A stretch of 64,000 bases of DNA, taken from a virus. Its lineage: Duplodnaviria > Caudoviricetes. The notes under the pieces are model-generated. The model worked only from the letters and a program-made list of their open reading frames with translations. It was not told the origin of the DNA and did not search any database. A program made the position numbers and the translations under genes. Positions 1,092-59,907 of the stretch are shown here, in pieces (the stretch's first letter is position 1; every line of letters begins with the position of its first letter). The stretch covers positions 114 to 64,113 of IMG/VR virus record IMGVR_UViG_2623620512_000003. The stretch is one strand, 5' to 3'.

Positions 1092-2347
1092 GCAAGACAG
1101 AGAGAAGACAACTGACTGCCACAGTATATAACGAATGTTCGCATACCCGCCTCGATGAGGTCACTGAGTGGCTGAATGCCAACTATGTGATTCGGGTCAA
1201 CCTCCTTGACCGCAGCAAGGTATCGCTGAGTCCCACGGAGGACTGCACCTTTCATTATGAGTATCCGGTCACGGAGGATGACATCCTTATTCATGCTTTC
1301 GCAGAGGAGGTGAAAATTCCGCGTAGTCTGCTGAAGGCGATACTGGCGAGTCCTAATCACATGCATTCCTTCAATCCCATAAAGGATTATCTGGAATCGC
1401 TGCGGGGGAAATATAAGGGTCCCTCGCAGATTGACATGTTATGTGCCTCGCTGCATTCGCCTAAGGAGACGGAGGAGTCAGCAAAGAGAACGAGCCATCT
1501 CCTGCGCAAGTGGCTCATTGCTACTGCTGCCTGTGCAATGGGAATCCGTCAGAACGACGTCGCCCTGGGGCTCGTCGGCGACAAGGCGGGTATCGGTAAG
1601 ACGTCCTTCTTTGAGATGCTGGTGCCGCCATGTCTCAATGAATATTATCAGGTGGCTCAGAAGGACGAGCGACTGTTCTCTATGCCCAACGGCTTCACGC
1701 AGCGTTTTATACTGAATTTCGATGAGTTCGCGGCCATCGGCAAGCACAACGAGGAGCTTTTCAAGATGTATATGTCGGCCAGCGAGATAGAAATCAAGCG
1801 CCCAGGATCCCGCTACGCAGAGAAGGCTCCGCGAGTGGCTTCCTGCTGCTTCACTTCTAATAAGAATCAGCGCATGGGTGGTTTCCTCAGCAAACCGGAC
1901 GCTGGTCTCATGCGTCGTCTAGCTGTCATCGAGGTGGATTTTATCGATGACTGCCGCAAGCGTCTTGACGTGGACCAGCTCTGGGCAGAGGCTGTCATGC
2001 TGCTCGATGGCCAGTATGACCCTCAATGGTCACAGCAGGAGTACCGACAGTTCGTGGACGAAAACCGCCAGTACGTCATCGAGACGAACGCTCTCCGCCT
2101 TATCCGTATCTACTATCGTAAGCCGGAGGAAGGCGAAGAGTGTCAGTTCATGACAGCCATGGAGGTCGTGCTGCAGCTGAAGAAGGAAAGGAAGATTTCC
2201 TCGGCCATGCAACAGGTCAACGAGGTGACTGTCGGCCAGGCGCTCACGGCCTTAGGCTATAAGTATTATACGAGGCGCTTCCCAGGGAAGACGCCTTATC
2301 ATGGTTATGACATCGTACCACTGTACGAAGCTCAGGGAAAAAAGTAG
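1088..2347 (+). CDS. VirE/VapE-family P-loop protein (helicase-like)
   Basis: FNPIKDYL, GDKAGIGKT, LNFDEF and DQLWAEA motifs; start overlaps previous stop. Confidence 0.75.
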   Translation: MSKTERRQLTATVYNECSHTRLDEVTEWLNANYVIRVNLLDRSKVSLSPTEDCTFHYEYPVTEDDILIHAFAEEVKIPRSLLKAILASPNHMHSFNPIKDYLESLRGKYKGPSQIDMLCASLHSPKETEESAKRTSHLLRKWLIATAACAMGIRQNDVALGLVGDKAGIGKTSFFEMLVPPCLNEYYQVAQKDERLFSMPNGFTQRFILNFDEFAAIGKHNEELFKMYMSASEIEIKRPGSRYAEKAPRVASCCFTSNKNQRMGGFLSKPDAGLMRRLAVIEVDFIDDCRKRLDVDQLWAEAVMLLDGQYDPQWSQQEYRQFVDENRQYVIETNALRLIRIYYRKPEEGEECQFMTAMEVVLQLKKERKISSAMQQVNEVTVGQALTALGYKYYTRRFPGKTPYHGYDIVPLYEAQGKK

Positions 2348-2380
2348 TATCATTTTGAAAGTTTTGAATATTTAGAGTTG

Positions 2381-2418
2381 AAGTCCGTTGGTTTGTGAAA
2401 ATCGGCGGACTTTTTTTT
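2381..2418 (+). terminator. Intrinsic terminator after replication genes
   Basis: aagtccgttggttt-gtga-aaatcggcggactt stem followed by a T-run. Confidence 0.75.
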
Positions 2419-2551
2419 GAAGCGATCTTTTTTATTTTCCGCGTCCACACATTATTTATATATAAGTTTCCCTCACCTTCGTGAAATCTTCAAAAAATGA
2501 AGATTGATAGTTAAAAACAATGCGCGAAAATTTTTCGAATCCTTTTTACCG

Positions 2552-2761
2552 CACTTGCTACACTTGCTACAAATGAGTACAAAAGCACCGCCATCCCTTT
2601 ATTTATCATCATCTCCAAGTAGCAACTATTATCCTCTCTACCCTCTCGAACCGCTTGTTTTGCCATGTTGCTACAAGGTACTACAATCTTTATTCTGCTA
2701 CATCAAAACACTCTTAGAATCCCCTGTACATCGGCATTTCTGCTGTTGTAGCATGTAGCAA
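2552..2761. repeat. TGCTAC/GTAGCA direct and inverted repeat cluster, putative replication origin
   Basis: cacttgcta tandem at 2552-2572; further copies near 2619, 2669, 2696; inverted tgtagcatgtagca near 2747-2760. Confidence 0.5.
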
Positions 2762-2769
2762 GAAGGTAT

Positions 2770-3452
2770 ATCACCACTTTTTTCTTTTCTTCCCACATAT
2801 ATTTTTTTTCATTGTATGGCTGCATCATCTATAGGCGTTCTAATTGTCCTAGCATCTAATGGTATGGTTCCGACATCTTTACTATAGTAGTTGGCTTACC
2901 TGTTACCTTCACATTTTCTATCCGGCTTTCACCTTTTTGAAGTCCTGCATAACGAATTTTCCTGTTTAACGTGACGCCCTCCTTTTTGGTGTACCAGACT
3001 TTTCCCGCTGCAAATTTAATGCTCGCCGTGCCCTGCAAGTACTGGTCACAAGTTCCCGATGTCTGCAGAAATTTTCCGGCAACCTTCCATCATTTGCGTG
3101 AGTCCACGAAAATGATGGTATTCCATAAAATTTCCTGGCCATTCCTTGCCTTTAAGCACTTCCCTCGCCCAATTTCCTAGGCATCGTAAAAAGTCCTCAA
3201 CACAGAGGGCATCACTTGAAGTTAAACAATTAAATTCATAAAGTTATGCAGAACAATATTTCATCAAAGTTTCAAAGCCTCGCTAAAGAGGAAAAGAATT
3301 ATCTCGGTAAGCTCTCTTTTCAGAAGATGTCAGTTGAGTATTATATGAATGATTGCAAGGACAGTCATCCCGCCGTTTACGTAGGTACATACGCCAAGTA
3401 CAATGATGGAAGTCTCTTTGGTATGTGGGTTGATATGGTAAAGTGTGGTGAT
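2770..3452. promoter_or_regulatory. Fold-back element 1: long imperfect inverted repeat whose right arm runs into ardA
   Basis: Reverse complement of 2770-2981 matches 3205-3452 in collinear blocks; central hairpin core shared with element 2. Confidence 0.75.
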
Positions 3453-3860
3453 TATGACACATTCATGGAAGTATGCCACAGCCTGCATGCTGATGAAGAA
3501 GATCCAGAGCTGATGTATCAGGATTACGAGTGTTTCCCCAGTTCATGGTATTCCGAAAGCGGTATCGATGAAGATACATTCGATAGAATCATCGAGTTCA
3601 CAGAGTTGGATGATGATGACAGGGATGCTTTCGAGGAGTTCTCGGATGCTTTCGGTAATGATTGCATTGAAAGCTTCCGTGATCGCTACATGGGCAAATG
3701 GGATTCTGAGAAGGATTTCGCTGAGCACATCGTTGATGAGTGCTACAATCTGGATAAGATGATGGGAAGTCTCGCATCATACTTCGATTACGAAGCATAC
3801 GCTCGTGATCTCTTTATCGATGATTACTATTTCACCAATGGCTATGTGTTCAGGAGATAA
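3246..3860 (+). CDS. ardA: Antirestriction protein ArdA (DNA mimic, type I R-M inhibitor)
   Basis: VYVGTYAKYNDGSLFGMW, DPELMYQDYE and YFDYEAYARDL motifs; very acidic. Confidence 0.9.
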   Translation: MQNNISSKFQSLAKEEKNYLGKLSFQKMSVEYYMNDCKDSHPAVYVGTYAKYNDGSLFGMWVDMVKCGDYDTFMEVCHSLHADEEDPELMYQDYECFPSSWYSESGIDEDTFDRIIEFTELDDDDRDAFEEFSDAFGNDCIESFRDRYMGKWDSEKDFAEHIVDECYNLDKMMGSLASYFDYEAYARDLFIDDYYFTNGYVFRR

Positions 3861-3921
3861 TCCTGGCACATAGTCTCTTTTCTCGATTTTTTTTCGTATC
3901 TTTGCATCTCAATTCATACAT

Positions 3922-4551
3922 ATGAGCAAGTATATTTCAGAAAAAACACTGAGAACCATCCAAATAAGGAATGCAAAGAGTAGAAGCCAGATAATGCGAA
4001 CTTACTGGATAGAACTGGTATGCAGAATAGCTATTACTTACCAGCATTATTTTGATATGCGAAAGACTGGAGAAGTCTCAACTATAAATGCAACTGTTCA
4101 AGAAATCGAGAAAAAAATTGATTTCGCTAACTCGGTTTTCGACATTGACATTACGCTTTCTGACATATATGATTTCCAGCGTAGAAGTGTTGATAGCAGC
4201 ATCCAACAGTACGAGCAATACAAGAAAATCCTGGAATTCCAAGCTAACGATATTTTCAAGCCTAAATTAGTGGATATGCTGTGCAAGGAGTTGTTCGAGG
4301 AAGATGGTGAAAATCCTATTAACACTTTCATCTTTGGATATTACAGTGAAGTTGCTATCTTGATACTAGATTACATGTGCGAAGGTTTGGACTATGATAC
4401 ATTTATGAAGAATCTATTGGCTATCAAACTAGTCCCACATCAAAAGCCCATCGATGGAACAATTCTAAGAAGAATGATTAGAACTGGCGATAAATGGGAA
4501 AAGCGCTATGCCAAACTCTTCAAAGAAGAACGAGCTAAAGGAAATATATAA
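3922..4551 (+). CDS. Hypothetical protein (moron with its own promoter)
   Basis: 209-aa ORF preceded by TATCTTTG at 3897. Confidence 0.6.
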   Translation: MSKYISEKTLRTIQIRNAKSRSQIMRTYWIELVCRIAITYQHYFDMRKTGEVSTINATVQEIEKKIDFANSVFDIDITLSDIYDFQRRSVDSSIQQYEQYKKILEFQANDIFKPKLVDMLCKELFEEDGENPINTFIFGYYSEVAILILDYMCEGLDYDTFMKNLLAIKLVPHQKPIDGTILRRMIRTGDKWEKRYAKLFKEERAKGNI

Positions 4552-4554
4552 AAT

Positions 4555-4893
4555 ATGACACTTCGAGAATTAATTATTTCCGTAGATTCTGAGCAGTACA
4601 ACGATTCATTGTTGTACCAGAAGCTCCGCGAGACGAAGCCTGAATATGGCGCCAGCCGACATATTCAGGTAACTGCAGTTCGCGGTGACATTGTCGTTAC
4701 GAACTGTCACGTCGGCTCACTGGGTGATATCCTCACCTATCCTATCGATGTCGCTCCTGAGTTGAATATCTCGAAGGTGCAGCTGCTGGATGCCATCCTT
4801 CACGAGCTTTCCTCAGAGGGCTTCACCGACGAAGAGCAGGATGAGTTCTGGGATGACTTCGACAACCTTCAGAAAGCAAAGATCATCCGATGA
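4555..4893 (+). CDS. Hypothetical protein
   Basis: 112-aa ORF closely spaced with neighbours, acidic C-terminus. Confidence 0.6.
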   Translation: MTLRELIISVDSEQYNDSLLYQKLRETKPEYGASRHIQVTAVRGDIVVTNCHVGSLGDILTYPIDVAPELNISKVQLLDAILHELSSEGFTDEEQDEFWDDFDNLQKAKIIR

Positions 4894-5126
4894 CCGACTA
4901 CGATTCCATATGGCGCACGCAGGATGAAATCCGGACGGTAGTGAATGCCGTTCTGGGTGAATGCATCTGGAATCTTAATTGGAACGACCCTCGGATGGCC
5001 ATCGAACTGGAACTGACCTTAACGCTCGACGACGATGAAATCGACAATCTTTGCTGCCAGTTCCCCATCACTGCAGACTACGATGGTGTAGGTTCGAGAG
5101 GGTCTAAATTCACGTTCTACTTATAA
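4890..5126 (+). CDS. Hypothetical acidic protein
   Basis: 78-aa ORF with ATGA overlap. Confidence 0.6.
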   Translation: MTDYDSIWRTQDEIRTVVNAVLGECIWNLNWNDPRMAIELELTLTLDDDEIDNLCCQFPITADYDGVGSRGSKFTFYL

Positions 5127-5220: not shown

Positions 5221-5256
5221 GTCTTTTGTTATGTCATTGAAATTTAGTACCTTTGC
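5221..5256 (+). promoter_or_regulatory. Core-operon promoter motif GTCTTTT-N20-TAnnTTTGC, copy 1
   Basis: GTCTTTT at 5221, TACCTTTGC at 5248. Confidence 0.7.
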
Positions 5257-6340: not shown

Positions 6341-7453
6341 ATGGCAACCAACACAAAAACTACAGACTACCAACTTCACCTGAAGGGCTTCGTCGGAGGT
6401 TACGACTTCGATGCAGGCTATGTGGACTACGTTCTCTCTAAGAATGAGGGAAAGGAGGTCCGCGTCCTGATCGACTCGCTGGGAGGCAGGTCGAATACCG
6501 CCCTTTCTATTTTCTCGGCTTTCAAGCGCCATGGGAATGTGAACGTTCATTTCGTGGGCATGAACGCCAGTGCTGCTACAATCGCCTCACTCGGTGCCAA
6601 GCGCATCACAATGGACTCGTCAGCCATGTACCTTGTTCATAAATGTAGCGTGGGCTTCCTTGAATGGGGTCAGATGAACTCGGACGACCTCCAGGCGCTC
6701 ATCGACAACATCGAGCACCAGAAGGCCGACCTCGACAAGCTGGACGCTAACATCGCCCAGATGTATGCCACACGCTGCAAGAAGGACAAGGCTGACCTTC
6801 TCGACCTGATGAAGCAAGGTGGCTGGCTCACCGCTGAGGAAGCTCTTGCATGGGGCTTCGTGGACGAGCTGACTGACTACGAGGGCGAGGATGCACCGGT
6901 TCTGACCGACACGATGGCAAACGCCATGTCAGCAGCAGGAATCCCTGTCCCCAACATGCCCATATCGCCCAAATTGCCCACCATGTCGAAGCAGGACCAG
7001 TCGGCATTCATGAAGTTCCTGAGCGCATTGACCCAGTACTTCAGCACTTCAAAGCATCAAGAATCCATTAATTCACAAACCATCAACCCTATGAAGAAGA
7101 TTTTCACTTCCATTTGTGCCATCCTCTCATGTGAGCACCTGCTCAGTCAGGACGGCAAAATCACGCTTGATGACGCTCAGCTCGATACTATCGAGTCGGC
7201 CATCAGCGCAGACAAGCAGACAATCAACGACTTGAACGCTGAGATTCAGACGCTCAAGACCGAGAAACAGACCCTCTCGGATGCGAACGCTCAGCTGCAG
7301 AACGAGGTAAACACCCTGAAGCAGAAACCTGGCGACACCACAGCACACGTGGTGAACGATCAGCATCAGCAGCAGCGCACCGAGAAGACGGAGGCCGAAG
7401 AGTACTTCGAGTCACGTGCCAGTGCTCAGTCTCTTTTCGACTCTCTCCCCTAA
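6341..7453 (+). CDS. ClpP-like prohead protease with C-terminal coiled-coil scaffold region
   Basis: IDSLGG, NASAATI, YLVH and WLTAEEALAWGFVDE motifs; directly before capsid gene. Confidence 0.88.
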   Translation: MATNTKTTDYQLHLKGFVGGYDFDAGYVDYVLSKNEGKEVRVLIDSLGGRSNTALSIFSAFKRHGNVNVHFVGMNASAATIASLGAKRITMDSSAMYLVHKCSVGFLEWGQMNSDDLQALIDNIEHQKADLDKLDANIAQMYATRCKKDKADLLDLMKQGGWLTAEEALAWGFVDELTDYEGEDAPVLTDTMANAMSAAGIPVPNMPISPKLPTMSKQDQSAFMKFLSALTQYFSTSKHQESINSQTINPMKKIFTSICAILSCEHLLSQDGKITLDDAQLDTIESAISADKQTINDLNAEIQTLKTEKQTLSDANAQLQNEVNTLKQKPGDTTAHVVNDQHQQQRTEKTEAEEYFESRASAQSLFDSLP

Positions 7454-7499
7454 GACCTCTTAACAAACCGAATTAATCAACCATTTACCTTATCATTTT

Positions 7500-8498
7500 A
7501 TGGCAGGAAAACTACAATTTACTCTGGAGGAGTATCAGGACGCGGCTCGTAAGTACCGCAAGGATCTCCTCATGCTGCCCATCATCGGTATTCAGGACAC
7601 CTTGAAGTTCATGACTGGCCGACCGGGCATCCGTTACAAGGAAAGTGTGGCTGCTCTGAACGGCAACGCTCAGTTCGCGCCCTACAAGCCCTCACGTCGT
7701 TCAAACTTCAATCTGGACCTGGACTTCCGCACACTGGAGACCTTCTTCGGCTCCGTTGTTGCCCAGTTCGAGCCTAACAGCGCCATCTCGACCCTTCTTG
7801 GTGCCATCGGCGACACAAAGGGCGACGGCCAGATTCAGGCACCTACCGCCAAGCATGTGTTGGCCTTGATTGCCAAGTCACTTTCTGAGAACCTGAACAA
7901 CGCTATCTGGGCAGGTAAGCGCAACGCCTCTGGTGACACCACCCTCGACCTCTTCGACGGTTTCGACACCATCACCGCGCAGGAAATCAAGGAGGGCAAG
8001 ATTGCCAAGGAAGAGGGCAACTATATGAAGTTCACCGACGAAATCACGACCGCAAACGCCGTGGATATCGCCAAGCAGGTGCTCTTCTCCCTGGATCCTC
8101 ATCTTCGTGCGCAGACTTGTTACATGTACTGCTCACAGGACTTCGCCGACAAATACAACGAGGGTTATCTCCTGACTCACGCGGGTATCAACTACAACAA
8201 CCAGTATAATCAGAACGCCGTCGAAGGTTCTAACGGCAAGCTGATTCTCTGTCCGCTGGCTAACAAGGCTGATTCCAAGTTCATCCATGTTTCTCCAAAG
8301 ATCAACATGTTGGTCGGCTACGACCAGATGGGCGATACGGAGAATGTCATGGTTAAGGAGTACGAGCCGTTCATCCTCTCATATATCGCCACCATGTTCT
8401 TCGGCTGTCAGTTCGAGTCTATCGACAAGCGACGCCTGAAGGTTATCGAAATCGGCGGTTCATCCGCTCCTGCACAGGGAGGCGCAGGTGAAGGCTAG
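7500..8498 (+). CDS. Major capsid protein
   Basis: 332 aa; follows protease; LNNAIWAG...FDGFDT segment typical of HK97-fold capsids; terminator follows. Confidence 0.75.
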   Translation: MAGKLQFTLEEYQDAARKYRKDLLMLPIIGIQDTLKFMTGRPGIRYKESVAALNGNAQFAPYKPSRRSNFNLDLDFRTLETFFGSVVAQFEPNSAISTLLGAIGDTKGDGQIQAPTAKHVLALIAKSLSENLNNAIWAGKRNASGDTTLDLFDGFDTITAQEIKEGKIAKEEGNYMKFTDEITTANAVDIAKQVLFSLDPHLRAQTCYMYCSQDFADKYNEGYLLTHAGINYNNQYNQNAVEGSNGKLILCPLANKADSKFIHVSPKINMLVGYDQMGDTENVMVKEYEPFILSYIATMFFGCQFESIDKRRLKVIEIGGSSAPAQGGAGEG

Positions 8499-11803: not shown

Positions 11804-11866
11804 GGATGCAAAGGTACTAAAAAATCCAATGGTGTACAAATAAATTAAACATATTTAGAAAAAGAA

Positions 11867-15456: not shown

Positions 15457-17193
15457 ATGCCCACTAAGCCCACAATAGATACTAGCCTTTGGGATGCAGA
15501 AGCCCGCCAGCACGAGAAGCGCGTGTACTTTAACAAGCCCCAGTTGATGGCCCAGTACATCGGTGCCAAGACAACAGTCATTGTCGCTGGCCGACGTACA
15601 GGCAAGACGGACTCTATCGCCTCGCCATTCGTTCTGCGTAATATGCAGCGAATGCCGGGCTCTACTGGTGGTATAGTTGTTCCCACGTTCAAGCATGGCC
15701 TGACAAACACCATCCCTGGACTGTTGGCGGCATGGAAGCGCTGGGGCTACCTGAACGGCATCCACTATGTGGTAGGCCGTAAGCCGCCAAAGTCTTTCGG
15801 CAAGCCTATTACCGAACCTGCTGACTATGAGCATGTCATCACCTTCTACAACGGCTCCATCGCGGTCATCATCTCTCAGGACCGCCCTGGCTCTTCGAAC
15901 TCTCTGACCCTGTCTTGGCTCTTGATTGACGAGGCCAAGTTCATTGATTACAATAAGTTGAAGGACGAGACGCTTCCCGCCAACGGCGGCATTCGCTCGT
16001 ACTTCGGCCATCATTCGTTCAATCACGCCATGATGGTGCTTTCCGATATGCCCCAGACGCAGAAGGGCTCCTGGTTCCTGCATTATCGGGAGAAGATGGA
16101 TCCCCAGCTTATCGAGACGATTCAGGGCACCATCTACAAGATTTGGGATACAAAGGAGCGCATCGCCCGCATGAAGGAGCAGCACCAGCCCATTCCCCAG
16201 TACCTGAAGGGCTACTTGAAATGGCTCGACCAGTCGCTCAACAAGTTCCGCTCCGTGGCGGTGTACTATAAGGAGTACAGCACCATTGAAAACCTGCAGC
16301 TCCTGGGCGAAGAGTACCTGCGTCAGATGAAGCGTGACTTGACACCGAAGACCTTCCAGACCTCTATCCTCTGTCAGCGCATCGGCATCACTCATGACGG
16401 CTTCTACTCTTCCATGCAGGAGCATCACAAGTATGATGCCTCGAACTTTGCGTATCTCGACGAGCTGGGCTACGACAAGATCCTCAAAGAGACGAGCCAG
16501 CAGAACTACGACATCAAGGCAGCGTCGCAGTTCTCCACGCTCGGCAGCAGCATTGACTCCCGCGCCGACGAGGATGTGAATCCTCTGGCTCCCATCTGCA
16601 TCGGCATGGACTACAATGCCAATATCAACTGGATTGTAGCGGGCCAGCCAAGCGGCAACCGCTTGAACGTTCTCAAATCCTTCTACGTCAAGTTCGAGCG
16701 TAAGATTCCCGCCTTGGTCGATGATTTCTGCGCGTACTACGCTTATCATCAGAACAAGACGGTCATCTTCTACTACGATGCCACGGCCCTCGGCTCGAAC
16801 TATGCCGTGAACGACCAGGACTTCCGCTACGTCGTCGTCCATGAGTTTGAGCGCCACGGGTGGCAGGTACAGGATGTGTACCTGGGCAACCCGATGCGCC
16901 ACGACGAGAAGTACCTTCTCATCAATCAGGGCTTCGCGGGCAAGCAGCGCCTCATGCCGTTCTTCAACCGCCAGAACAACGATGACCTTATCCTGGCCAT
17001 CCAGTCTGCCGGTGTCGAACGCGGACGCAACGGCTTCCATAAGAACAAGTCTATGGAGAAGCAGCCTGAGTCCGAAGAGGACCTGCTTGAGCATCGTACT
17101 GACGGTACCGATGCTTTCGATACGCTGTACATCGGCTGTGAGAAGTTCCCCCAGCACGACGTCTACCCAATCGCCCTTGGTGGAGTTCTTTAG
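15457..17193 (+). CDS. terL: Terminase large subunit
   Basis: AGRRTGKT Walker A, LLIDEAK Walker B, nuclease motifs IGMDYN and DGTDAFD. Confidence 0.88.
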   Translation: MPTKPTIDTSLWDAEARQHEKRVYFNKPQLMAQYIGAKTTVIVAGRRTGKTDSIASPFVLRNMQRMPGSTGGIVVPTFKHGLTNTIPGLLAAWKRWGYLNGIHYVVGRKPPKSFGKPITEPADYEHVITFYNGSIAVIISQDRPGSSNSLTLSWLLIDEAKFIDYNKLKDETLPANGGIRSYFGHHSFNHAMMVLSDMPQTQKGSWFLHYREKMDPQLIETIQGTIYKIWDTKERIARMKEQHQPIPQYLKGYLKWLDQSLNKFRSVAVYYKEYSTIENLQLLGEEYLRQMKRDLTPKTFQTSILCQRIGITHDGFYSSMQEHHKYDASNFAYLDELGYDKILKETSQQNYDIKAASQFSTLGSSIDSRADEDVNPLAPICIGMDYNANINWIVAGQPSGNRLNVLKSFYVKFERKIPALVDDFCAYYAYHQNKTVIFYYDATALGSNYAVNDQDFRYVVVHEFERHGWQVQDVYLGNPMRHDEKYLLINQGFAGKQRLMPFFNRQNNDDLILAIQSAGVERGRNGFHKNKSMEKQPESEEDLLEHRTDGTDAFDTLYIGCEKFPQHDVYPIALGGVL

Positions 17194-19045: not shown

Positions 19046-19720
19046 ATGGCAGACAAAGAAACTGGCTACGTTTACATTCTCACCAATCCTAGTTTCAGAG
19101 AAGACTGGGTTAAAATCGGCAAAAGCTCGCGACCTGTTAACGTGAGAAGTAAAGAGCTTGACAACACTGCCGTTCCACTTCCCTTTGACATATATGCTAC
19201 AATGCAAACGGAGAAGTACAGCGAGGCAGAAAAAGTCATCCACAAACAGATAGACCGTTTGACTGATAGACGTATCCGTCAAAATAGAGAATTTTTTAAT
19301 CTTGAGCCAGCTATGGCTTTAGATATTATGCTCGACTTGGCAAGATTATCACCTGATGCTGTGGTAATGAAGTATGAGAATGGCGAGTCATTCCAAATTT
19401 ATCCGGTTATGGATGTTGTGATTAAGCATGGCAAGGATAAAAAAGAGCAGCGTCCACCCTTCGATTTCTCAATGGTTGGACTGACTATTGGTGACGAAAT
19501 AATCTTCGACGCCCTCCAATTGTCTGTTAAGGTTGCTGGCAAGAACAAGGTAGAATACGATGGTCGTCTTTGGAGTTTATCTGCTTTTTGCGGCACATAC
19601 CTACCAGAAGAAATGCATAATAAAAGCGAAGCCTATCAGGGGCCAAAATATTTTAGCTACAAAGGCCAAACACTTTGGGAAATTAGACTAGAGAAAGAGA
19701 AAAAAATAGCAAACATTTAA
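19046..19720 (+). CDS. GIY-YIG (T5orf172-type) nuclease with C-terminal accessory domain
   Basis: GYVYILTN...VKIGKS...R..EL and NREFF motifs. Confidence 0.8.
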   Translation: MADKETGYVYILTNPSFREDWVKIGKSSRPVNVRSKELDNTAVPLPFDIYATMQTEKYSEAEKVIHKQIDRLTDRRIRQNREFFNLEPAMALDIMLDLARLSPDAVVMKYENGESFQIYPVMDVVIKHGKDKKEQRPPFDFSMVGLTIGDEIIFDALQLSVKVAGKNKVEYDGRLWSLSAFCGTYLPEEMHNKSEAYQGPKYFSYKGQTLWEIRLEKEKKIANI

Positions 19721-19754
19721 ATCATATTAGAAATATAAATAATAAATATCTTCA

Positions 19755-22556
19755 ATGAATAAACAACAACTAGCAGCAAAGATATGGGCATCAGCAAATA
19801 AGATGCGTTCTAAGATTGAAGCTAATGAATATAAGGACTATATTCTTGGCTTTATCTTCTATAAATTCCTGTCTGACAAAGAAGTCAGATTTGCTACTAC
19901 TGAGGCAGCAATCTCAGTAGAGGACCTTCCAAAGTATCTTCAAGAGAGCGACGATGAGGAGCAAGCCGTAATGGTGGAGTATTTCCGCAATAATTTGGGA
20001 TATTTCATTTCTTACGATAACCTTTTCACCACTTGGCTTGACAAAAAGAGAGATTTTGACGTGAAGAACGTTTCAGATGCATTGTCTGCTTTTGAACGTC
20101 TTATACATCCAACCCATCAGAATGTTTTCAAAAACATCTTTAATACTCTTGAAGTTGGCTTGAAGAAACTGGGGTCTACCTCTAAGGATCAGACAGCTGC
20201 CATCAAAGGTTTGCTGAAATTGATAAAAGACATACCGATGGACGGTAAACAGGACTATGATGTGCTTGGTTTCATCTACGAATATCTGATTGGAAAGTTT
20301 GCTGCTAATGCCGGCAAGAAGGCAGGCGAGTTCTATACTCCACATGAAGTCTCAGTCTTGATGTCTGAAATCGTGGCTGATCACCTGAAAGACAGGAAGC
20401 ATATTGAGATTTATGATCCAACGAGCGGTTCTGGCTCATTACTGATAAACATAGGCAAAGCACTTTCCAAATATATGACCGATGAGAACGGCGTAGTCTA
20501 TTATGCTCAGGAATTGAAGGAAAATACCTACAACCTGACACGTATGAACTTAGTAATGCGTGGCATCATACCATCCAACATCTTTGTCCGCAACGGTGAT
20601 ACGCTGAAAAAGGATTGGCCTTTCTTTGAAGATGGGCCGGACGGCACATACGCTGACGACACGTACAAATATCATAGTGTAGATGCCGTGGTCAGTAATC
20701 CTCCATATTCCCAACCATGGGAAGCTAAGAATAAGAATAATGACCCTCGCTTCAAGGAATTTGGCGTAGCCCCCAAAGGAAAAGCTGATTATGCATTCCT
20801 CTTGCACGACCTCTACCACCTGAAAGGCGATGGAGTGATGACCATTGTATTGCCTCATGGTGTGTTGTTCCGTGGAAGCCCAGATGATGGCAGTGAAGGT
20901 AGCATCCGTAAGGAACTTGTTGAGGGTAATCATATAGAGGCAATTATCGGTTTACCTTCCGACATCTTCTATGGTACAGGCATTCCAACACTCGTCATGG
21001 TACTACGCAAGCAGCGAGCTGACGAGGGCATATTACTTGTGGACGCTTCAAGCTGCTACATAAAACAAGGCAAGAAGAATGTGCTCCGCACTTCTGACAT
21101 AAAGCGAATAGTCGACGTGGTGAGAAGTCGTGAAAGCAAAAAAGGATTCTCTTGTGTGGTAAGTAAAGAGCTGATTCGCAAGAATGACTACAACCTCAAT
21201 CTTCCCAGGTACATCAGTTCTACCAAACAACCCGAAACATGGGACATTTATGCCACAATGTTCGGGGGTATTCCTAATAGCGAAATCGACTTATTGAATA
21301 ACAAATGGGAGGCAATGCCTGGTCTCAGGCAACACCTCTTTACATCGGATGACACGCCATTTAGTCAAGTGGCTCATGATGATATTGAGAACGAGATAAT
21401 ACGGCATCCCTCTGTAATAGCCTATAAGCATGAGTTCGCACGAGCCATGCAGGGATTTGATGAATACCTTTTTGAGGAACTGCTACGACATCCAAAGAAA
21501 GTTAACATCACTGCTGAGGAACCAAAGATCAGCGAAGAGATTTTTTCTCGTCTGAAGGATGTGAAACTCATTGACTCGTACGATGCTTATCAGCTTCTCG
21601 ATGACGAGTGGACTACCATTGCTACCGACCTAGAAATTATACAGACCGAGGGTATGGATGCCTGCTTCGTTGTTGATCCCAACATGGTTACAAAGAAAAA
21701 GGATAACAAGGAAATTGAGGTTCAGGAAGGCTGGCTGGGCAGAGTTCTTCCATTTGAAATAGTGCAGCAGATGTTCCTCAAAGGGGATTACGATGCCCTT
21801 TGTGAAAAGCAGAAGAGTCTGAACGGTGTCTCCAACGACCTCACAGAATTGGTAGCATCAATAGCAGGATATGAGGATGGTGCGTCTGTGCTTAATGATG
21901 ACAACAATGCATTCGTAGCCAAGGAGGTTTCCGCAAAACTTGACTCTATCTATGAAAGCATCGACACAGACGAGACCAAGGCTCTGGAAGAATATCTCAC
22001 CCTGACAAAGAAAAACGAAAAACTGGCTTTTATTGCCAGTCACAAGGATGTTGATTGGAGTATCGGTGTCCCCAACAAAGATAACACATACAGTGCTAAA
22101 GCCGTACAGGCTATAATCAAGGATATCCGATCTAAAACTGAGTTTGAAGAAGATACTTTTGAGTATGACCTCGTAAAGGCAGAACAGTTGTTGGAGGAAG
22201 AAAAAAGGCTTAAAAGCGAATGTAAGAAAGATGCAGACGCCCTCCACCTCCTTACCAAGAAAACCATAGAGGAGGATTTAAACACAGAGGATGCCATCAA
22301 CATTCTTCAACAGAAATGGATAGCACCAGTGGTGAAGAATTTAGCTGCGATGCCAGACTGTGTAGTATTGGAACTATGTACCAGCATAAAAGCCCTAATA
22401 GACAAGTATGCCACCACAATGGTCGAGACCGAGCAGAGCATTAATGAGACAGAGCGCGAGTTAAACAAGATGTTGAGTAATCTTGTTGGCAATGATTTTG
22501 ACATGAAAGGTATAGGCGAGATTCAGAAACTTTTTAACCACAATGATTATGAGTAA
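19755..22556 (+). CDS. hsdM: Type I R-M methyltransferase subunit (long form)
   Basis: GEFYTP, DPTSGSGSLL, NPPY; about 400-aa C-terminal extension. Confidence 0.95.
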   Translation: MNKQQLAAKIWASANKMRSKIEANEYKDYILGFIFYKFLSDKEVRFATTEAAISVEDLPKYLQESDDEEQAVMVEYFRNNLGYFISYDNLFTTWLDKKRDFDVKNVSDALSAFERLIHPTHQNVFKNIFNTLEVGLKKLGSTSKDQTAAIKGLLKLIKDIPMDGKQDYDVLGFIYEYLIGKFAANAGKKAGEFYTPHEVSVLMSEIVADHLKDRKHIEIYDPTSGSGSLLINIGKALSKYMTDENGVVYYAQELKENTYNLTRMNLVMRGIIPSNIFVRNGDTLKKDWPFFEDGPDGTYADDTYKYHSVDAVVSNPPYSQPWEAKNKNNDPRFKEFGVAPKGKADYAFLLHDLYHLKGDGVMTIVLPHGVLFRGSPDDGSEGSIRKELVEGNHIEAIIGLPSDIFYGTGIPTLVMVLRKQRADEGILLVDASSCYIKQGKKNVLRTSDIKRIVDVVRSRESKKGFSCVVSKELIRKNDYNLNLPRYISSTKQPETWDIYATMFGGIPNSEIDLLNNKWEAMPGLRQHLFTSDDTPFSQVAHDDIENEIIRHPSVIAYKHEFARAMQGFDEYLFEELLRHPKKVNITAEEPKISEEIFSRLKDVKLIDSYDAYQLLDDEWTTIATDLEIIQTEGMDACFVVDPNMVTKKKDNKEIEVQEGWLGRVLPFEIVQQMFLKGDYDALCEKQKSLNGVSNDLTELVASIAGYEDGASVLNDDNNAFVAKEVSAKLDSIYESIDTDETKALEEYLTLTKKNEKLAFIASHKDVDWSIGVPNKDNTYSAKAVQAIIKDIRSKTEFEEDTFEYDLVKAEQLLEEEKRLKSECKKDADALHLLTKKTIEEDLNTEDAINILQQKWIAPVVKNLAAMPDCVVLELCTSIKALIDKYATTMVETEQSINETERELNKMLSNLVGNDFDMKGIGEIQKLFNHNDYE

Positions 22557-23763
22557 GAAGTTGGTACCAGACATCAGATTCAAAGGATTTGATGGAGAAT
22601 GGAATGAGTCGCTGCTGAATGAGAAACTTATTCCTTCGAGAGAAAAGAATATACAAGAACTCTTTTCGAAGGATGAAGTGCTTTCTGTGTCAGGGGATTA
22701 TGGTGTTGTGAATCAATTAAAATTTAAGGGAAGGTCATTTGCCGGTGTGTCTGTAGCTCCATACGGAGTAGTACATACGAATGATGTTGTCTATACAAAG
22801 TCACCGCTCAAAAAACAACCTTATGGCATTATTAAGACCAATAAGGGTGTAGATGGCATAGTTTCCACGCTCTACGCTATTTATTCTTGTGCCCAAGGAG
22901 TCTATCCTAATTTCGTAGAAGATTATTTCAATTCAGACGATAGATTGAATTCATATTTGCGTCCACTGGTTAGGAAAGGTGCAAAGAATGATATGAAGAT
23001 TTCTTTGGAAGGGGCATTGGCGGGGAAGGTGTGGTTTCCAGAATATAAAGAACAGAAGATGATTTCCAACTTCTTTGAGATTCTTGCTAAAGAAATATTA
23101 TCGGTTCAAACGAAGTTGGATAAGCTCTATGCCTTGAAGAAAACGATGCTTGTCAAAATGTTTCCGCAAGGTGATGCCCTTTTGCCTGAAATAAGGCTCA
23201 ATGGTTTTAAGGGGGAATGGAAATGTTCTCCTGCTAAAGAAATCTTTAAATCTGTAGCTGACAAGAATCATCCTGACCTTCCCGTACTGTCTGCCTCTCA
23301 AGAACTTGGTATGATAAAACGTGATGAGGTTGGCAAAATCGTAGCGCACGACAAATCTAACGAAGCAACATATAAAAGGGTTCTTCCTGGGCAGTTTGTT
23401 ATACATCTAAGATCGTTTCAGGGCGGATTCGCACATTCTGCCTACGAAGGTATTACTTCGCCAGCATATACTGTGATGGACTTTAAAGAGAAAGAATTAC
23501 ATGATGATATGTATTGGAAATATGTTTTCATGACAAAGATGTTTATTGTCAGATTGGAAACGGTTACTTACGGTATTCGTGATGGCAGAAGTATTAGCTT
23601 TGCCGATTTTTCCTCTTTGGAAATGAAATATCCAGATGTTAGAGAACAAGCAGCCATAGGTCTGTATTTCCAAACACTGGACAAGCAACTTCGTTTATAT
23701 GAACAGAAGCTGTCGAAACTAAAGAATCTGAAGTCAGCATTTCTTAAAAACATGTTTGTGTAG
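22543..23763 (+). CDS. hsdS: Type I R-M specificity subunit
   Basis: Two TRDs separated by conserved P.IRF/L.GF.GEW and EQ..I..FF/YF blocks. Confidence 0.92.
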   Translation: MIMSKKLVPDIRFKGFDGEWNESLLNEKLIPSREKNIQELFSKDEVLSVSGDYGVVNQLKFKGRSFAGVSVAPYGVVHTNDVVYTKSPLKKQPYGIIKTNKGVDGIVSTLYAIYSCAQGVYPNFVEDYFNSDDRLNSYLRPLVRKGAKNDMKISLEGALAGKVWFPEYKEQKMISNFFEILAKEILSVQTKLDKLYALKKTMLVKMFPQGDALLPEIRLNGFKGEWKCSPAKEIFKSVADKNHPDLPVLSASQELGMIKRDEVGKIVAHDKSNEATYKRVLPGQFVIHLRSFQGGFAHSAYEGITSPAYTVMDFKEKELHDDMYWKYVFMTKMFIVRLETVTYGIRDGRSISFADFSSLEMKYPDVREQAAIGLYFQTLDKQLRLYEQKLSKLKNLKSAFLKNMFV

Positions 23764-23766
23764 CCT

Positions 23767-26700
23767 ATGAAATTTGATGAAGAAAAATCATTTGAGGATG
23801 CCCTTGTTGCGCTGCTTGCTCCTTCGAAAGGATGGAACAAGAAGTTATTGATGTACCCCACAGAGGAGGATTTAATAGCGAATTGGGCACAGATTCTCTT
23901 TGAGAATAATCGCGAGATTGACTGTCTGAACGAGCAACCGCTGACAGACACAGAGATGGAACAGGTTCTTCAACAAGTGTATAATTTGAAGACTCCCATC
24001 AAATTAAATGGTTTCATTAATGGCAAAAGTGTGGCCATAATACGTGACAACAAGAACGATAAATTACACTTTGGAAAGGAAGTTCGTCTGAAAATCTATG
24101 ACCGCAACGAGATAGCCGGTGGCAAAAGCCGTTATCAAATTGCACGTCAGCCCAAATACAATAAGAAATGTCCTGTATTGCAAAATCGTCGTGGCGACAT
24201 TACACTTCTCATCAATGGTATGCCTGTGATACATATAGAACTGAAGCGTTCAGACACTCCTATCAGTAAGGCCATACATCAGATAGAGGAATATAGTCAT
24301 GAGGGCATTTTTACAGGAATCTTCTCTTTAGTACAGGTGTTTGTGGCGATGACCCCAGAAGAAACACTATACTTCGCCAATCCCGGTCCTGATGGAAAAT
24401 TCAATCCAAGTTACTACTTCCACTGGGCAGATTTCAACAACCAAGTAATCAATGAGTGGGAGAAGATTGCAGGCTTGTTATTATCCATTCCAAAGGCACA
24501 TCAACTAATAGGATTTTACACCGTAGCAGACAAATCGGACAACACGTTGAAAGTGATGCGTAGTTATCAGATTGAGGCAGCTGAGAATATCAGTGATGTG
24601 GTGAGGGATATTCACTGGGGCGAGAATAATCTCCGTGGTGGTTATATATGGCATACCACAGGAAGCGGCAAAACAATGACCAGTTTCAAGACCGCATGTC
24701 TCATAGCTGAAGCAGACAAAGCTGATAAGGTGATTTTCCTAGTTGACAGAATAGAATTAGCCACCCAGTCGACATTGAAATACCAGGGGTATGCAGATGC
24801 AGAAGGCGATGTTGTAGATACCGATGATTGCGAAGACCTGATAAGCAAGTTGAAGAACACAGAAGATGACTTGATCGTGACCTCTATTCAAAAGATGAGC
24901 CGAATAACTATTGGTGAATCAAAGAAGCGCGACCGCGACATTGAGAAGATTCAAAAGAAGCGAAAAGTGATCATTATCGACGAATGTCATCGCGATACTT
25001 TCGGTGATATGCTCATAAACATCAAGCAAACGTTTCCCGAATCGGTATTGTTTGGTTTTACAGGCACGCCTATTGATAAGGAGAACCAAAAGAAGCTGAA
25101 CACAACAGCCACCGTATTTGGTAACGAATTACACAGATACACATTGGCAGATGCCATAACCGATAAAAATGTTTTGGGATTTGACCCACGAATGGTGCTT
25201 ACTTACAAAGACAAAGATTTACGCAAAACCGTAGCACTGGAAAAAAGTAAGGCTAAGTCAGAAGAAGAAGCAATAAGCCATAAAGCCAAGGCCAAAGTGT
25301 TTTACCACTATATGAATGATGTGCCGATGGCTGGATATACGGACGAAACAGGCAAATACCATTCCGGCATAGAAGACCATATTCCATCCTCGCAATATAA
25401 GCTTGGCAAGCACCGAATCGCAGTTGTAAATGACATAAAAGACGGATGGCTGACACTAAGCCGCAACAACAAATTTCATGCGATACTGGCCACATCGAGT
25501 ATAGTCGAAGCTATAGCATATTACAGATTGTTCCGTGAACTCATGCCTTCGTTAAAAGTGACGGCACTTTTTGACTCTTCCGATAATCACAATGAGACTT
25601 CTATTGAAAAGATTGATGGACTGAAGGACATAATTCTTGATTATAATAGTTTCTATAGACAGAAGTTCTCGATTAGCAATTATGGCATGATGCGTAAGGA
25701 CATATCAGCCAGGATGTCGCATACAGAGCCTTATCTTGGACTACACAAAACGCCTGAGATGCAAATCAATCTGCTGATAGTAGTTGATCAGATGCTTACG
25801 GGTTTCGACTCAAAATGGGTAAACACTTTGTACTTAGACAAGATGCTGGAGCAGGAGCACCTGATACAGGCTTTTAGCCGTACCAACAGATTGTTTGGAC
25901 CAGACAAACCTTTCGGAAACATACGCTTTTATCGCAGACCGCACACTATGAAGCGTAATATAGACGAAGCAATATCACATTATAGCGGTGACCGCCCTCA
26001 AGGGTTGTTCGTGGAGCAGTTGGAATATAACCTGCACAAACTCAATGAGATATTCACAGACATTGATCATCTGTTCTCTACTTCTGGCATCAAGAAATTT
26101 GAAAGATTGCCAGATGATATAAGTGAGAGGCAAGAATTTGTAAAACTCTTCAACCAGTTTAATAAGTATTTAGAGGCTTCCAGGATTCAGGGATATATTG
26201 CATTCGAGAAGATGCAGAAGGTGGAGAAAGAGGAAGGTACAACAGTGATGGTTGAAATGTTGTTCGACGAAAACCAGTATAATGCCTTGCTTCAGCGCTA
26301 CAACGAGCTCTCGCATGGGGGCGGAGGTGGAGGCGATGAAGACGTGCCATACGACATTGAAACATATATTACGGAAATAGATACAGGCAAAATAGATGCC
26401 GACTACATGAACCACAAGTTTGACAAATGGCTCAAGGTACTTGCACAGCCTGATGTGACAGAAGAAGAGAAAAATGCTACGCTCGACGAACTGCACAAAT
26501 CCTTTTCCACTCTGACACAGGAAGAGCAAAACTACGCATATATCTTCTTGCACGATATAGAAAACGGTGATGTAAAACTAAAGCCTGGCAAGACTTTGCG
26601 TGATTACATAACCGAATATCTGACTCGCTCCCAGGATCGCCGTATTCACCATTTTGCAGAGACATTCGGTTTGGATGAGCAGCAACTGCGAGACATTATG

Positions 26701-26904
26701 CTGTCTGGGCCAACTACTGAAAATATTGACATTAGGGGAAGATTTACAAATCTTAAGAAAAGTGCAAATATAAATCTCGCCAAAAATTATTTTGAACAAG
26801 AGGAAAGGAGCAAATTTCCCACCCCTATAGTGATAGTGAAACTGGATAATCTACTTAGAAAATTCATTTTGGGAGAGGCTGATGAGAATTTTAACGACGA
26901 TTAG
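23767..26904 (+). CDS. hsdR: Type I R-M restriction subunit
   Basis: D...IELK nuclease motif, HTTGSGKT, DECH, FTGTP, QAFSRTNR. Confidence 0.95.
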   Translation: MKFDEEKSFEDALVALLAPSKGWNKKLLMYPTEEDLIANWAQILFENNREIDCLNEQPLTDTEMEQVLQQVYNLKTPIKLNGFINGKSVAIIRDNKNDKLHFGKEVRLKIYDRNEIAGGKSRYQIARQPKYNKKCPVLQNRRGDITLLINGMPVIHIELKRSDTPISKAIHQIEEYSHEGIFTGIFSLVQVFVAMTPEETLYFANPGPDGKFNPSYYFHWADFNNQVINEWEKIAGLLLSIPKAHQLIGFYTVADKSDNTLKVMRSYQIEAAENISDVVRDIHWGENNLRGGYIWHTTGSGKTMTSFKTACLIAEADKADKVIFLVDRIELATQSTLKYQGYADAEGDVVDTDDCEDLISKLKNTEDDLIVTSIQKMSRITIGESKKRDRDIEKIQKKRKVIIIDECHRDTFGDMLINIKQTFPESVLFGFTGTPIDKENQKKLNTTATVFGNELHRYTLADAITDKNVLGFDPRMVLTYKDKDLRKTVALEKSKAKSEEEAISHKAKAKVFYHYMNDVPMAGYTDETGKYHSGIEDHIPSSQYKLGKHRIAVVNDIKDGWLTLSRNNKFHAILATSSIVEAIAYYRLFRELMPSLKVTALFDSSDNHNETSIEKIDGLKDIILDYNSFYRQKFSISNYGMMRKDISARMSHTEPYLGLHKTPEMQINLLIVVDQMLTGFDSKWVNTLYLDKMLEQEHLIQAFSRTNRLFGPDKPFGNIRFYRRPHTMKRNIDEAISHYSGDRPQGLFVEQLEYNLHKLNEIFTDIDHLFSTSGIKKFERLPDDISERQEFVKLFNQFNKYLEASRIQGYIAFEKMQKVEKEEGTTVMVEMLFDENQYNALLQRYNELSHGGGGGGDEDVPYDIETYITEIDTGKIDADYMNHKFDKWLKVLAQPDVTEEEKNATLDELHKSFSTLTQEEQNYAYIFLHDIENGDVKLKPGKTLRDYITEYLTRSQDRRIHHFAETFGLDEQQLRDIMLSGPTTENIDIRGRFTNLKKSANINLAKNYFEQEERSKFPTPIVIVKLDNLLRKFILGEADENFNDD

Positions 26905-29906: not shown

Positions 29907-30749
29907 TTAAGCTCTATACATGTCACTCTGGTCATCAAGAGCTGCTTGAAACGGTTCATGAGCCTCTCTATATAGTTCAACATCCCGTTCACTCATTCCC
30001 GCTTTCTTGTATATAATATCCCAGTCGTGGCTAGAATAGTATCTATCTAGCTTACAAATCTCATCACAATAGGCATCACGAGATGCCAGTATTTTGTCTT
30101 TCCAAAGATTCTCGTAGAAATTTAGTCTTTCAATATCAATATGACACTTCACCTCATGAAGTTCACTTGTATTGAGTTGACTGACATTCTTTCCCAATTT
30201 CAATGCAAGTCGCTTTGAAGCCTTCGCTAATGCTAATTCAGTATTATAGACATTGTCCTCAGAACAGATGGATTCACCCAAAGTGATAACAACATTCGGA
30301 TATTCTTTCTTAGTCCACATGAAGTTGACATCACATTTGTTATTTGACAAGCCAATTATTTCATATACTTTTGATGAATTGAAATAAAGCTCCTCTATTG
30401 TGAAATGACCTGATTCTGCAAGTTTTTTTGCAAGTTCTTTAAACTCTGATGGAGTATCACACTTGTCTGAATAGCAATACCACAGGTATACACTAAGCCA
30501 AATGATTTTTCTATATTGGTTATATTCACAATAAACCTCTACGCTCCATATATCTTGATCATAAAGGGGATTGGAAATACTCATTGTGTCTACATCGATA
30601 ATACTATGCATTTTGTTATCCCCTTCAGGTTTACAATAGGTACAATAATTATGCATATTGTCCGAGAACATATCCACATTATCTCCAATCTTACAACCTG
30701 CGATGGATATCATACCATCTTCTTCTTTAACTAAATCAATGCATTTCAT
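29907..30749 (-). CDS. Hypothetical protein
   Basis: 280-aa AT-rich ORF; minus-strand TAAGTTTG promoter box near 30785-30792. Confidence 0.6.
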   Translation of the reverse strand: MKCIDLVKEEDGMISIAGCKIGDNVDMFSDNMHNYCTYCKPEGDNKMHSIIDVDTMSISNPLYDQDIWSVEVYCEYNQYRKIIWLSVYLWYCYSDKCDTPSEFKELAKKLAESGHFTIEELYFNSSKVYEIIGLSNNKCDVNFMWTKKEYPNVVITLGESICSEDNVYNTELALAKASKRLALKLGKNVSQLNTSELHEVKCHIDIERLNFYENLWKDKILASRDAYCDEICKLDRYYSSHDWDIIYKKAGMSERDVELYREAHEPFQAALDDQSDMYRA

Positions 30750-30829
30750 ATCATCGTGATTTTTAGAACTACCTTTTCGGATGCAAACTTAAGCATTTTC
30801 CGCAAATTTTCCAAACTTTTTTGTCATAC

Positions 30830-37858: not shown

Positions 37859-38014
37859 GCGGATTTTTTTTTATCTTTGCACCCAAACATTACCATATGC
37901 ATAACTTATTATTGGATGTAACAATTATGCTATATAGATAAGATCCATTCATGAGAGATGCAAAATGTGATAACAAACATGTCATACAACAAAACCTAAA
38001 ATATAGTTATAATT

Positions 38015-47244: not shown

Positions 47245-47353
47245 TCATTAAATCGTTTTAGGTTACTAACTTGATACAAAAGTACATCTTTAATCGTACA
47301 ATACCAAATAAAACAATAAAAAAATTAAAAAAAGAATCACCTGTTCTATTCTA

Positions 47354-59757: not shown

Positions 59758-59907
59758 ATCGTTTTCTTGTTTAGCGGGTGCAAAGGTAGTCATTTTTTTT
59801 CTTACCCACAAATTTTGAGACTACTTTTTTTCCTGACGACAACATTTTTAAGCAAGGTGGGCAAGGGACGGTCTCACAGGCCGCGCCGACCGTCCCTCCC
59901 CCCTTTT

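Follow-up and report, generated by a model that had tools for sequence, protein, structure and literature searches.

Single-strand promoters allow conjugative plasmids to express anti-defence genes before the incoming strand has been copied. To our knowledge, they rest so far on a handful of enterobacterial sequences with sigma-70 promoter words, and we know of no description of them in tailed phages. In Frpo, mispairs lie in the -10 melting element. Folded single-stranded DNA (ssDNA) also mimics a promoter in the minus-strand origin of M13/f1 and in rolling-circle single-strand origins (sso), where the host RNA polymerase starts. In coliphage N4, template-strand hairpins are the early promoters, dependent on supercoiling and on SSB, a protein that binds single-stranded DNA; these have stems of 5-7 bp and a 3-nt loop, and are read by the virion RNA polymerase. 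According to two published accounts, the Frpo/ssi elements (F, ColIb-P9 ssi) control ardA, ssb and psiB in the leading region of conjugative plasmids (PMC11541004, PMC8708921). Here, we describe an imperfect hairpin that occurs twice in 64,000 nucleotides of a Prevotella-type tailed prophage (positions 114 to 64,113 of IMGVR_UViG_2623620512_000003, an IMG/VR provirus record of 64,113 bp; this whole stretch is called the window). We hold with moderate confidence that this element is a Bacteroidota counterpart of the Frpo/ssi single-strand promoters, and that it works only or mainly in ssDNA.

An earlier note on this DNA had described two related hairpin cores, at 3008-3192 and 31322-31518, with shared words and differing apical stems. 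The shared words were all recovered in place. In the window, the 22-mer CCGTGCCCTGCAAGTACTGGTC is found at 3026-3047 and 31341-31362 and nowhere else, with 0 occurrences expected (100 shuffles), and the two copies, A and B, are 72% identical over 167 nt (BLAST). The differing apical stems both pair: 3087-3100 is 93% complementary to 3105-3118 in copy A, and 31404-31415 is 92% complementary to 31433-31444 in copy B. On the extent of the element the note is corrected, since each core is only the interior of a longer imperfect palindrome (about 2941-3254 and 31166-31664). The elements and the genes that follow them are:

2941-3254, minus strand: copy A, whole imperfect palindrome (extended hairpin), from inverted-repeat arms and ssDNA fold
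3008-3192, minus strand: copy A, conserved core hairpin, which aligns with 51 other distinct copies and shows covariation
3246-3860, plus strand: ArdA anti-restriction gene, after copy A (Pfam PF07275, E 1.2e-33; PHROG anti-restriction protein, E 1.2e-26)
31166-31664, minus strand: copy B, whole imperfect palindrome, from inverted-repeat arms and ssDNA fold
31322-31518, minus strand: copy B, conserved core hairpin, from alignment and covariation
31579-31803, plus strand: gene for a 74-aa conserved protein, first of the plus-strand gene row after copy B (weak PurS-like match only, E 0.009)

The outermost arm pairs are 2942-2953 with 3243-3254 in copy A and 31168-31186 with 31644-31662 in copy B. 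The right arm of copy A takes in the 5' untranslated region (5'UTR) and the start codon of ArdA, and that of copy B the 5'UTR and about 28 codons of the 74-aa gene. When folded as ssDNA, the minus strand of extended copy A (2935-3260) reaches -60.4 kcal/mol (z -7.10), versus -49.0 for the plus strand, and that of extended copy B (31160-31670) reaches -91.7 kcal/mol (z -7.66), versus -82.1. The cores alone fold with weaker z scores (-2.4 and -2.9 for copy A; -1.5 and -1.0 for copy B).

Bayley et al. are said to have given, in 2000, a Bacteroidetes promoter consensus of -33 TTG / -7 TAnnTTTG. The earlier note had read such a promoter on the minus strand of each core, and a motif scan agreed: TTG-N17-TAAATTTG lies at 3011-3038 and TTG-N18-TAAATTTG at 31325-31353. 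The parts of the putative promoters are as follows.

3036-3038, minus strand: -33-like TTG of copy A, within the invariant GCAAG/CTTGC helix
3011-3018, minus strand: -7 box TAAATTTG of copy A, 17 nt after the TTG, at the hairpin base and predicted to be partly unpaired
31325-31353, minus strand: promoter of copy B from the motif scan, made up of TTG (31351-31353), 18 nt and TAAATTTG (31325-31332)
3185-3192, plus strand: CGTAAAAA of copy A, invariant or nearly so, the putative initiation region of the rightward transcript
31511-31518, plus strand: CGTAAAAA of copy B, predicted initiation region

With both strands scanned, TTG-N16-20-TAnnTTTG has only 10 sites in the 64 kb. Of the eight sites outside the hairpins, the six compared with nearby genes are all directly upstream of a gene or tRNA, so a simple motif scan is meaningful in this genome. 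These six are:

5226-5255: before the gene at 5281
11809-11839: counted among those directly upstream of a gene or tRNA
30784-30814: before the minus-strand gene at 29907-30749
37849-37879: before the gene at 38015
47277-47307: before 47244
59781-59811: before a tRNA

In the same scan of the window, no plus-strand site was found ahead of ArdA (3246) or the gene at 31579. Both genes are on the plus strand, so the minus strand is their template. The arm that carries the -33 and -7 words is the 3' arm of the minus-strand hairpin, and is thus a non-template strand aimed at the gene. In duplex DNA, the same promoter words point away from the right-hand gene; once the template strand folds, they point towards it.

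In all, 52 distinct copies of the element were collected from Bacteroidales proviruses, mobilizable elements and one plasmid. Among nine related viral records reached through ArdA relatives, the element was present in all nine and both copies in five. A pattern of three conserved 3'-arm words gave 33 stretches in viral contigs, which yielded 31 distinct full-length elements; an exact 18-mer had 0 matches in the viral contigs. A similar pattern gave 33 stretches in 185,579 species genomes, and an nhmmer profile of the 31 elements matched 27 places in 26 of these 33 genome loci (E <= 2e-15). The matched loci belong to Prevotella, Prevotellaceae, Xylanibacter, Segatella, Bacteroides, Bacteroidaceae and Ca. 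Aphodosoma, plus one bin labelled Oscillibacter, while seven pattern loci from unrelated phyla had no profile match except for one marginal match (E 5.6e-4). One copy lies on a plasmid record of Phocaeicola massiliensis, which was the only match of the B. faecis-type copy among plasmid records, and the B. faecis copy has a counterpart of 96% identity on an unannotated "Bacteriophage sp." contig. Isolates are among the genomes that carry the element. In a sample of 401 genomes of the family that included the centre genome, the strict pattern occurred in three, against 0 with the reversed control; this frequency is a lower bound. A blastn search of copy A against a phage collection gave no match.

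Nearly all copies share the promoter geometry. In 50 of the 52, TTG-N16-19-T[AT]nnTTTG stands at the 3' base of the minus strand, with a spacer of 17 nt in 21 copies, 18 nt in 12, 19 nt in nine and 16 nt in eight. GCAAA and the A of the -7 box are invariant in the alignment (52/52), and most of CAAGTA is invariant or nearly so. The -33 TTG lies in the best-kept helix (columns 44-49/203-208; 93.3% paired), with a predicted pairing probability of 0.94. Along T A n n T T T G of the -7 box, the predicted pairing probabilities are 0.76, 0.23, 0.39, 0.62, 0.69, 0.73, 0.87 and 0.96. The box, which the earlier note had proposed to be imperfectly paired, is predicted to be partly open, with the lowest values at "A n" (0.23-0.39) and 0.69-0.96 in TTTG. 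The predicted start region is paired; CGTAAAAA at 3185-3192 pairs with TTTTT(C)C at 3000-3007 (helix 1), and on the template arm CGTAAAAA comes six to eight nt beyond the -7 box. After CGTAAAAA, each subfamily has its own small stem-loop, then an A-rich leader, then an ATG 41-100 nt away (range in the 31 viral copies). This order is what would be expected of a real mRNA 5' end. The stem-loops in the window are the following, and relatives hold stems of other sequence at the same place.

3193-3210, plus strand: 5' stem-loop of the predicted ArdA mRNA, GTCCTC...GAGGGC, read by eye, no statistics
31526-31539, plus strand: 5'UTR stem-loop of copy B, AGCTCC-TC-GGAGCT, read by eye

In all 31 viral copies, the intact gene is on the side without the canonical promoter, and in all six records that hold two copies, both are co-oriented.

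The same words in duplex DNA suggest a different explanation, which we consider unlikely: an ordinary leftward promoter within a head-to-head inverted duplication of promoter, 5'UTR and gene start. The left copy would then be the working duplex promoter, the right-hand genes would be transcribed by another route, and the arms would be kept complementary by gene conversion or template switching. The motif is indeed a perfect duplex promoter for the minus strand; however, inverted duplication leaves the right-hand operons without a canonical promoter. The left flank mirrors the right 5'UTR and first codons, as a duplication would predict, and this is visible in the window as:

31124-31261, minus strand: degenerate 45-aa mirror open reading frame (ORF) that begins with a copy of the first residues of the 74-aa protein; it is the palindrome's left arm and no conserved gene

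Left-side ORFs vary among the relatives. A leftward gene that such a promoter could serve is present in some genomes: an AbiEi/AbiEii-type toxin-antitoxin pair, with two types of AbiEi, lies leftward at 128-313 nt from the hairpin in the four copies that precede a DUF2958 operon (loci L063, L083, L086 and L089) and in L072. The viral copies, in contrast, have no conserved leftward gene; six of the 31 have no ORF of at least 25 aa, and the rest have differing ORFs of 26-130 aa. Near copy B, the minus-strand gene at 29907-30749 is preceded by a promoter of its own (30784-30814).

Next, a consensus structure was computed from the 52-copy alignment with RNAalifold, giving 54 pairs in 10 helices, and pair counts were compared with those of 500 shuffles. 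Paired cells amounted to 85.8%, versus 72.0 +/- 0.5% in the shuffled data, a value reached by 0 of 500. The covariation score was 0.337 versus 0.116 (0/500), and 35 of the 54 pairs had changed on both sides versus 29.9 (2/500). When partner columns were slid by 1-3 positions, the covariation score was at most 0.119. Already in the first 14 copies, RNAalifold found 25 pairs, 15 of them with compensatory changes; on a 31-sequence MAFFT alignment it found only 12 pairs because the apical region aligns badly, and Ribosum scoring recovered the whole stem. At the apex, length and sequence vary while pairing is kept, and, between the main stem and the -33 word, quite different sequences maintain a small side hairpin (helix 7). 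A palindrome in the flanks was found in 45 of the 51 copies tested (z above 3), and was absent in L063, L083, L086, L089, L072 and L073, so that the core is the common unit. Across the 52 copies, the arms keep fixed differences, for example some 9 additional nt in the 3' arm and the presence of a -7 box in a single arm, which simple homogenization of an inverted duplication would erase. Nor does the duplication account for the asymmetry of the mismatches described next (40 A:C versus 21 G:T).

Covariation suits any single-stranded nucleic acid, so the element could also act as RNA. In this case, a rightward transcript begun further upstream would read through, fold and be cut, for example by RNase III, or have its start codon hidden, so that read-through transcripts would stay untranslated. 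The inclusion of the ArdA start codon in the stem (2942-2953 with 3243-3254) would suit such a role, as would an RNA-library contig that covers part of the 3' arm and the ArdA start. We nevertheless regard it as improbable. An RNA element leaves the TTG and TAnnTTTG words at promoter spacing in 50 of 52 copies unexplained. Because minus-strand genes lie upstream of copy B, a plus-strand transcript there would require its own nearby promoter. The earlier note had raised a match to a described RNA motif as a point that would tell against its promoter; in Rfam 15, the whole window gave only tRNA at the gathering threshold, and around both copies a search at E up to 10 gave only chance matches to snoRNA and sRNA families, so that no Rfam family matches the element.

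The folding strand was examined through wobble pairs and stability. In the 50 pairs common to the consensus folds of both strands, there were 40 A:C cells, which are G:T on the minus strand, versus 21 G:T cells. In the 54 minus-derived pairs the figures were 166 A:C versus 49 G:T, although that structure is itself biased to the minus strand. For a plus-strand RNA the wobble bias is the wrong way round by either count. The minus strand was the better fold, and the plus strand the poorer, in 28 of the 31 copies. In the extended hairpins, G:T pairs on the minus versus the plus strand numbered 9 versus 1 in copy A and 9 versus 3 in copy B, and the minus strand was more stable by 11.4 and 9.6 kcal/mol, respectively. 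The folding-strand evidence thus leans against a plus-strand RNA.

A promoter between inverted repeats that faces away from its gene also recalls the invertible promoters for which Bacteroides is known. The earlier note had offered such a phase-variable switch as its alternative, in which recombination between outer repeats flips the core towards the gene. Copy B has outer repeats that could serve (31234-31258/31576-31600, 88% complementary); however, none of the 52 distinct copies was flipped, and a single orientation is thus the rule here. Moreover, the element forms a single unbroken palindrome whose internal pairs covary, a feature for which an invertible segment has no need. The flank repeats are absent in six of 51 copies (the four of the DUF2958 operons, L072 and L073), and no recombinase gene adjoins. 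In one DNA run (X11), at contig level only, no joint or strand change was seen over 2000-5000. We therefore consider an invertible promoter very improbable.

The earlier note had named random downstream genes as a further point that would tell against its promoter; the genes that follow the hairpin are not a random set. Downstream classes, partly assigned by eye, were distributed over the 52 copies as follows.

71-76 aa protein, the most frequent neighbour: 24 copies
ArdA: 10 copies
100-aa gene followed by a DUF2958 protein (E 7.6e-5): four copies
ComF-like phosphoribosyltransferase: three copies
SSB (Pfam E 2.8e-8 and 1.5e-7): two copies
giant SNF2 helicase / N6 methylase protein: one copy
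other genes: six copies
no gene, or flank too short: two copies

Plasmid leading regions carry this same set of anti-restriction, SSB and methylase genes. For leading regions under Frpo control, the classes given in print are ArdA, SSB and orphan methylases (PMC11541004). Some relatives stand beside genes of DNA transfer. The B. faecis copy lies about 5 kb from a Mob_Pre relaxase, with two ArdC-like genes adjoining and a Toprim protein and a cell-wall hydrolase nearby; the TraJ-type conjugation gene (PF07863) was not found on that contig. In a Prevotella metagenome-assembled genome (L064), two co-oriented copies at 1148-1345 and 2117-2297 are 1 kb apart, the first preceding SSB, and an ORF of the PF03432 relaxase family follows on the same strand, 3.3-4.5 kb downstream of the two copies. 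In the F plasmid, the leading region is followed by the tra genes, and the order in L064 is the same. As separate observations, locus L079 has a partial copy at 6623-6770 (profile positions 2-151), about 280 nt upstream of dnaN (beta clamp; 7048-7998). In L072, a Bacteroidaceae bin with the element at 7497-7675, the hairpin is followed after about 200 nt by an ORF that, by eye, resembles FtsZ in its first residues, and not by the DUF2958 operon; this may mark an element boundary or a rearrangement.

The likeness to Frpo/ssi, as described in print, is a template-strand imperfect hairpin of a few hundred nucleotides that rebuilds a host promoter and is inactive or wrong-facing in the duplex. It extends to the anti-restriction, SSB and methylase genes downstream, and some relatives here are near relaxase genes. 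The differences concern, first, the promoter words, which here are -33 TTG / -7 TAnnTTTG and not -35 TTGACA / -10 TATAAT. Second, the copies of the window are in a tailed prophage, two per genome, in which no Mob_Pre or PF03432 relaxase was found; a leading-region position is not seen in the window, and a relaxase lies within 3.3-5 kb in two contexts of relatives. Third, the stem here reaches into the coding region. The N4 promoters are far smaller than this hairpin of 180-500 nt, which has host-type -33/-7 words.

The architecture would be the same for a single-strand origin or priming signal, in which RNA polymerase, recruited by the folded strand, would prime synthesis of the complementary strand and gene expression would be secondary. 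Frpo is reported to do both transcription and priming, and a 1997 paper by Masai and Arai reportedly names both transcription and primer synthesis in its title. A priming signal overlaps with a single-strand promoter and is compatible with it; as the main function, we give it a low probability. Copy A is about 250 nt from an iteron-like cluster beside replication genes, whereas copy B has no iterons nearby. At the M13/f1 origin and at sso, only a short primer is made and no gene stands at a fixed distance, whereas here a conserved 5'UTR and gene follow. The distance from the hairpin to the conserved 5'UTR, stem-loop and start codon is held at 41-100 nt in the 31 viral copies, the class of downstream gene is conserved, and there are two copies per genome, each ahead of an operon. 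These points weigh against a priming signal as the main function.

From the hairpin and its covariation, the conserved promoter motif and geometry, the downstream gene set and the relatives beside relaxase genes, we infer a use by RNA polymerase, a start site and a DNA state. The proposed process would begin with the minus strand, on which ArdA and the 74-aa gene are templated, becoming single-stranded and folding into the long imperfect hairpin. The 3' arm would then supply a host-type promoter as the non-template strand, with TTG, 16-19 nt and TAnnTTTG; pairing would be complete at the -33 word and partial at the -7 box. As template would serve the 5' arm, and RNA polymerase would start at the invariant CGTAAAAA and proceed towards the gene by way of the hairpin base. 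Since the stem of the prophage copies runs on through the 5'UTR and first codons, the polymerase would meet ordinary duplex DNA while clearing the promoter. In the duplex state, the same promoter would face the other way and the right-hand gene would be left without a canonical promoter. Candidate sources of ssDNA in a prophage are exposure of the lagging-strand template, rolling-circle replication, transfer by helper conjugation and hairpin extrusion. Over most of the genome, the plus strand is rich in C, a bias that leftward forks would match but that transcription can produce as well.

The promoter might also have a role in both states. Its direction would then be set by the state of the DNA: leftward in the duplex of the lysogen, into non-coding DNA beside the origin, and rightward into ArdA and the second operon when the template strand folds. 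This is a tentative idea, which we think possible but would not favour. The gene-free region left of copy A (2476-2912) is covered at full identity by RNA-library contigs of two studies. They could come from a leftward non-coding transcript of the hairpin promoter in lysogens, or from transcription of the origin, and they would also suit the leftward promoter of an inverted duplication. The RNA evidence consists of contigs from three rumen libraries; their strand and ends are unreadable, DNA carry-over is possible, and the shares of the runs are small (0.09-0.17). Most of ArdA and the hairpin core are uncovered in the three libraries, which is no evidence of silence.

Several observations weigh against a single-strand promoter. 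Tailed phages inject double-stranded DNA. A tailed prophage with terminase, head protease and tape measure is expected to enter as duplex, yet this one has two such putative promoters. No relaxase of the Mob_Pre or PF03432 family, the two families searched, was found in the record. Copy A had no blastn match in 72,556 plasmid records, and the known Frpo sequences were not among the direct comparisons. In the DUF2958-operon copies and L072, the promoter could simply serve the leftward AbiEi-like gene in duplex DNA. The 52 sequences are related and therefore not independent, and inverted repeats can stay complementary through gene conversion or template switching without selection on folding. 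Composition explains most of the strand asymmetry: the observed differences of 4.11 (DNA) and 7.38 (RNA) kcal/mol compare with 2.42 and 6.02 in dinucleotide shuffles, so the folding-strand test leans to the minus strand and is not decisive. Finally, a 160-nt RNA-library contig of a relative (depth 3.7) spans about 3147-3306 and hence reaches upstream of the predicted start by about 40 nt. This would speak against initiation at CGTAAAAA, although neither of the two RNA-contig observations is strong.

The proposal of the earlier note, a promoter activated in ssDNA or in a cruciform, thus stands in part. Covariation, a non-random set of downstream genes, the promoter geometry and the lack of an Rfam match agree with it, while the strand test only leans its way and the setting is a tailed prophage in which no relaxase was found. 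Even so, more than 30 prophage variants retain the element, with compensating changes.

No publication linking single-strand promoters to Bacteroidota was found, although the supplementary Frpo candidates of PMC11541004 may include non-Proteobacteria. On balance, we lean towards reading the element as a single-strand promoter of a further phylum, one with other promoter words and, surprisingly, found in tailed prophages. A family with Bacteroidetes words would show that the principle holds there under another grammar, and it would supply a model with which to search Bacteroidales elements of gut and rumen for leading regions and for early genes of anti-defence. It would also raise the testable question of why a tailed prophage thought to enter as duplex DNA has two such promoters. 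If the direction of the promoter is indeed set by the state of the DNA, these Prevotella phages would pass through a stage with the minus strand exposed, by replication-coupled expression, rolling-circle replication or ssDNA transfer, and Bacteroidota would have evolved their own plasmid-type single-strand promoter, common to conjugative elements and phages.

The prophage genes around the two elements include the following.

363-1091: DnaC-like loader
1088-2347: VapE-type primase/helicase
3922-5126, plus strand: three small genes behind ArdA (3922-4551, 4555-4893 and 4890-5126), before the next canonical promoter at 5226-5255
6341-7453: head maturation protease
15457-17193: large terminase, weak match
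49454-49966: amidase
52028-56245: tape measure
58209-59354: integrase
59685-59757: tRNA

The three small genes probably share the operon of ArdA. The product of 3922-4551 has only a sub-threshold match to the Enc34 ssDNA-binding protein (E 0.0017). The 74-aa protein after copy B had nothing above cut-off in Pfam, PHROGs and NCBIfam, and its relatives fall into 88 clusters without any informative name.

Just past the DnaC-like and VapE-type genes, the word TGCTACA is clustered: six of its 13 occurrences in the window are at 2556-2760, in both orientations, and the cluster is conserved in relatives. The cluster probably marks an origin of the iteron type, some 250 nt to the left of hairpin A. 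The region 19046-26904 holds a T5orf172 gene and, behind it, a complete type I restriction-modification system with HsdM (19755-22556), HsdS-like (22543-23763) and HsdR (23767-26904) genes. ArdA, an inhibitor of type I systems, thus coexists with such a system in one prophage genome. At 38015-40782, a gene for a caspase-domain protein with Sel1/TPR repeats precedes one for a CHASE2-domain protein, behind their own canonical promoter (37849-37879); these genes look like defence or abortive-infection cargo. Beyond the tRNA and outside the prophage, a 749-aa minus-strand ORF at 60460-62709 matches DUF3987 below threshold and may be part of another integrated element.

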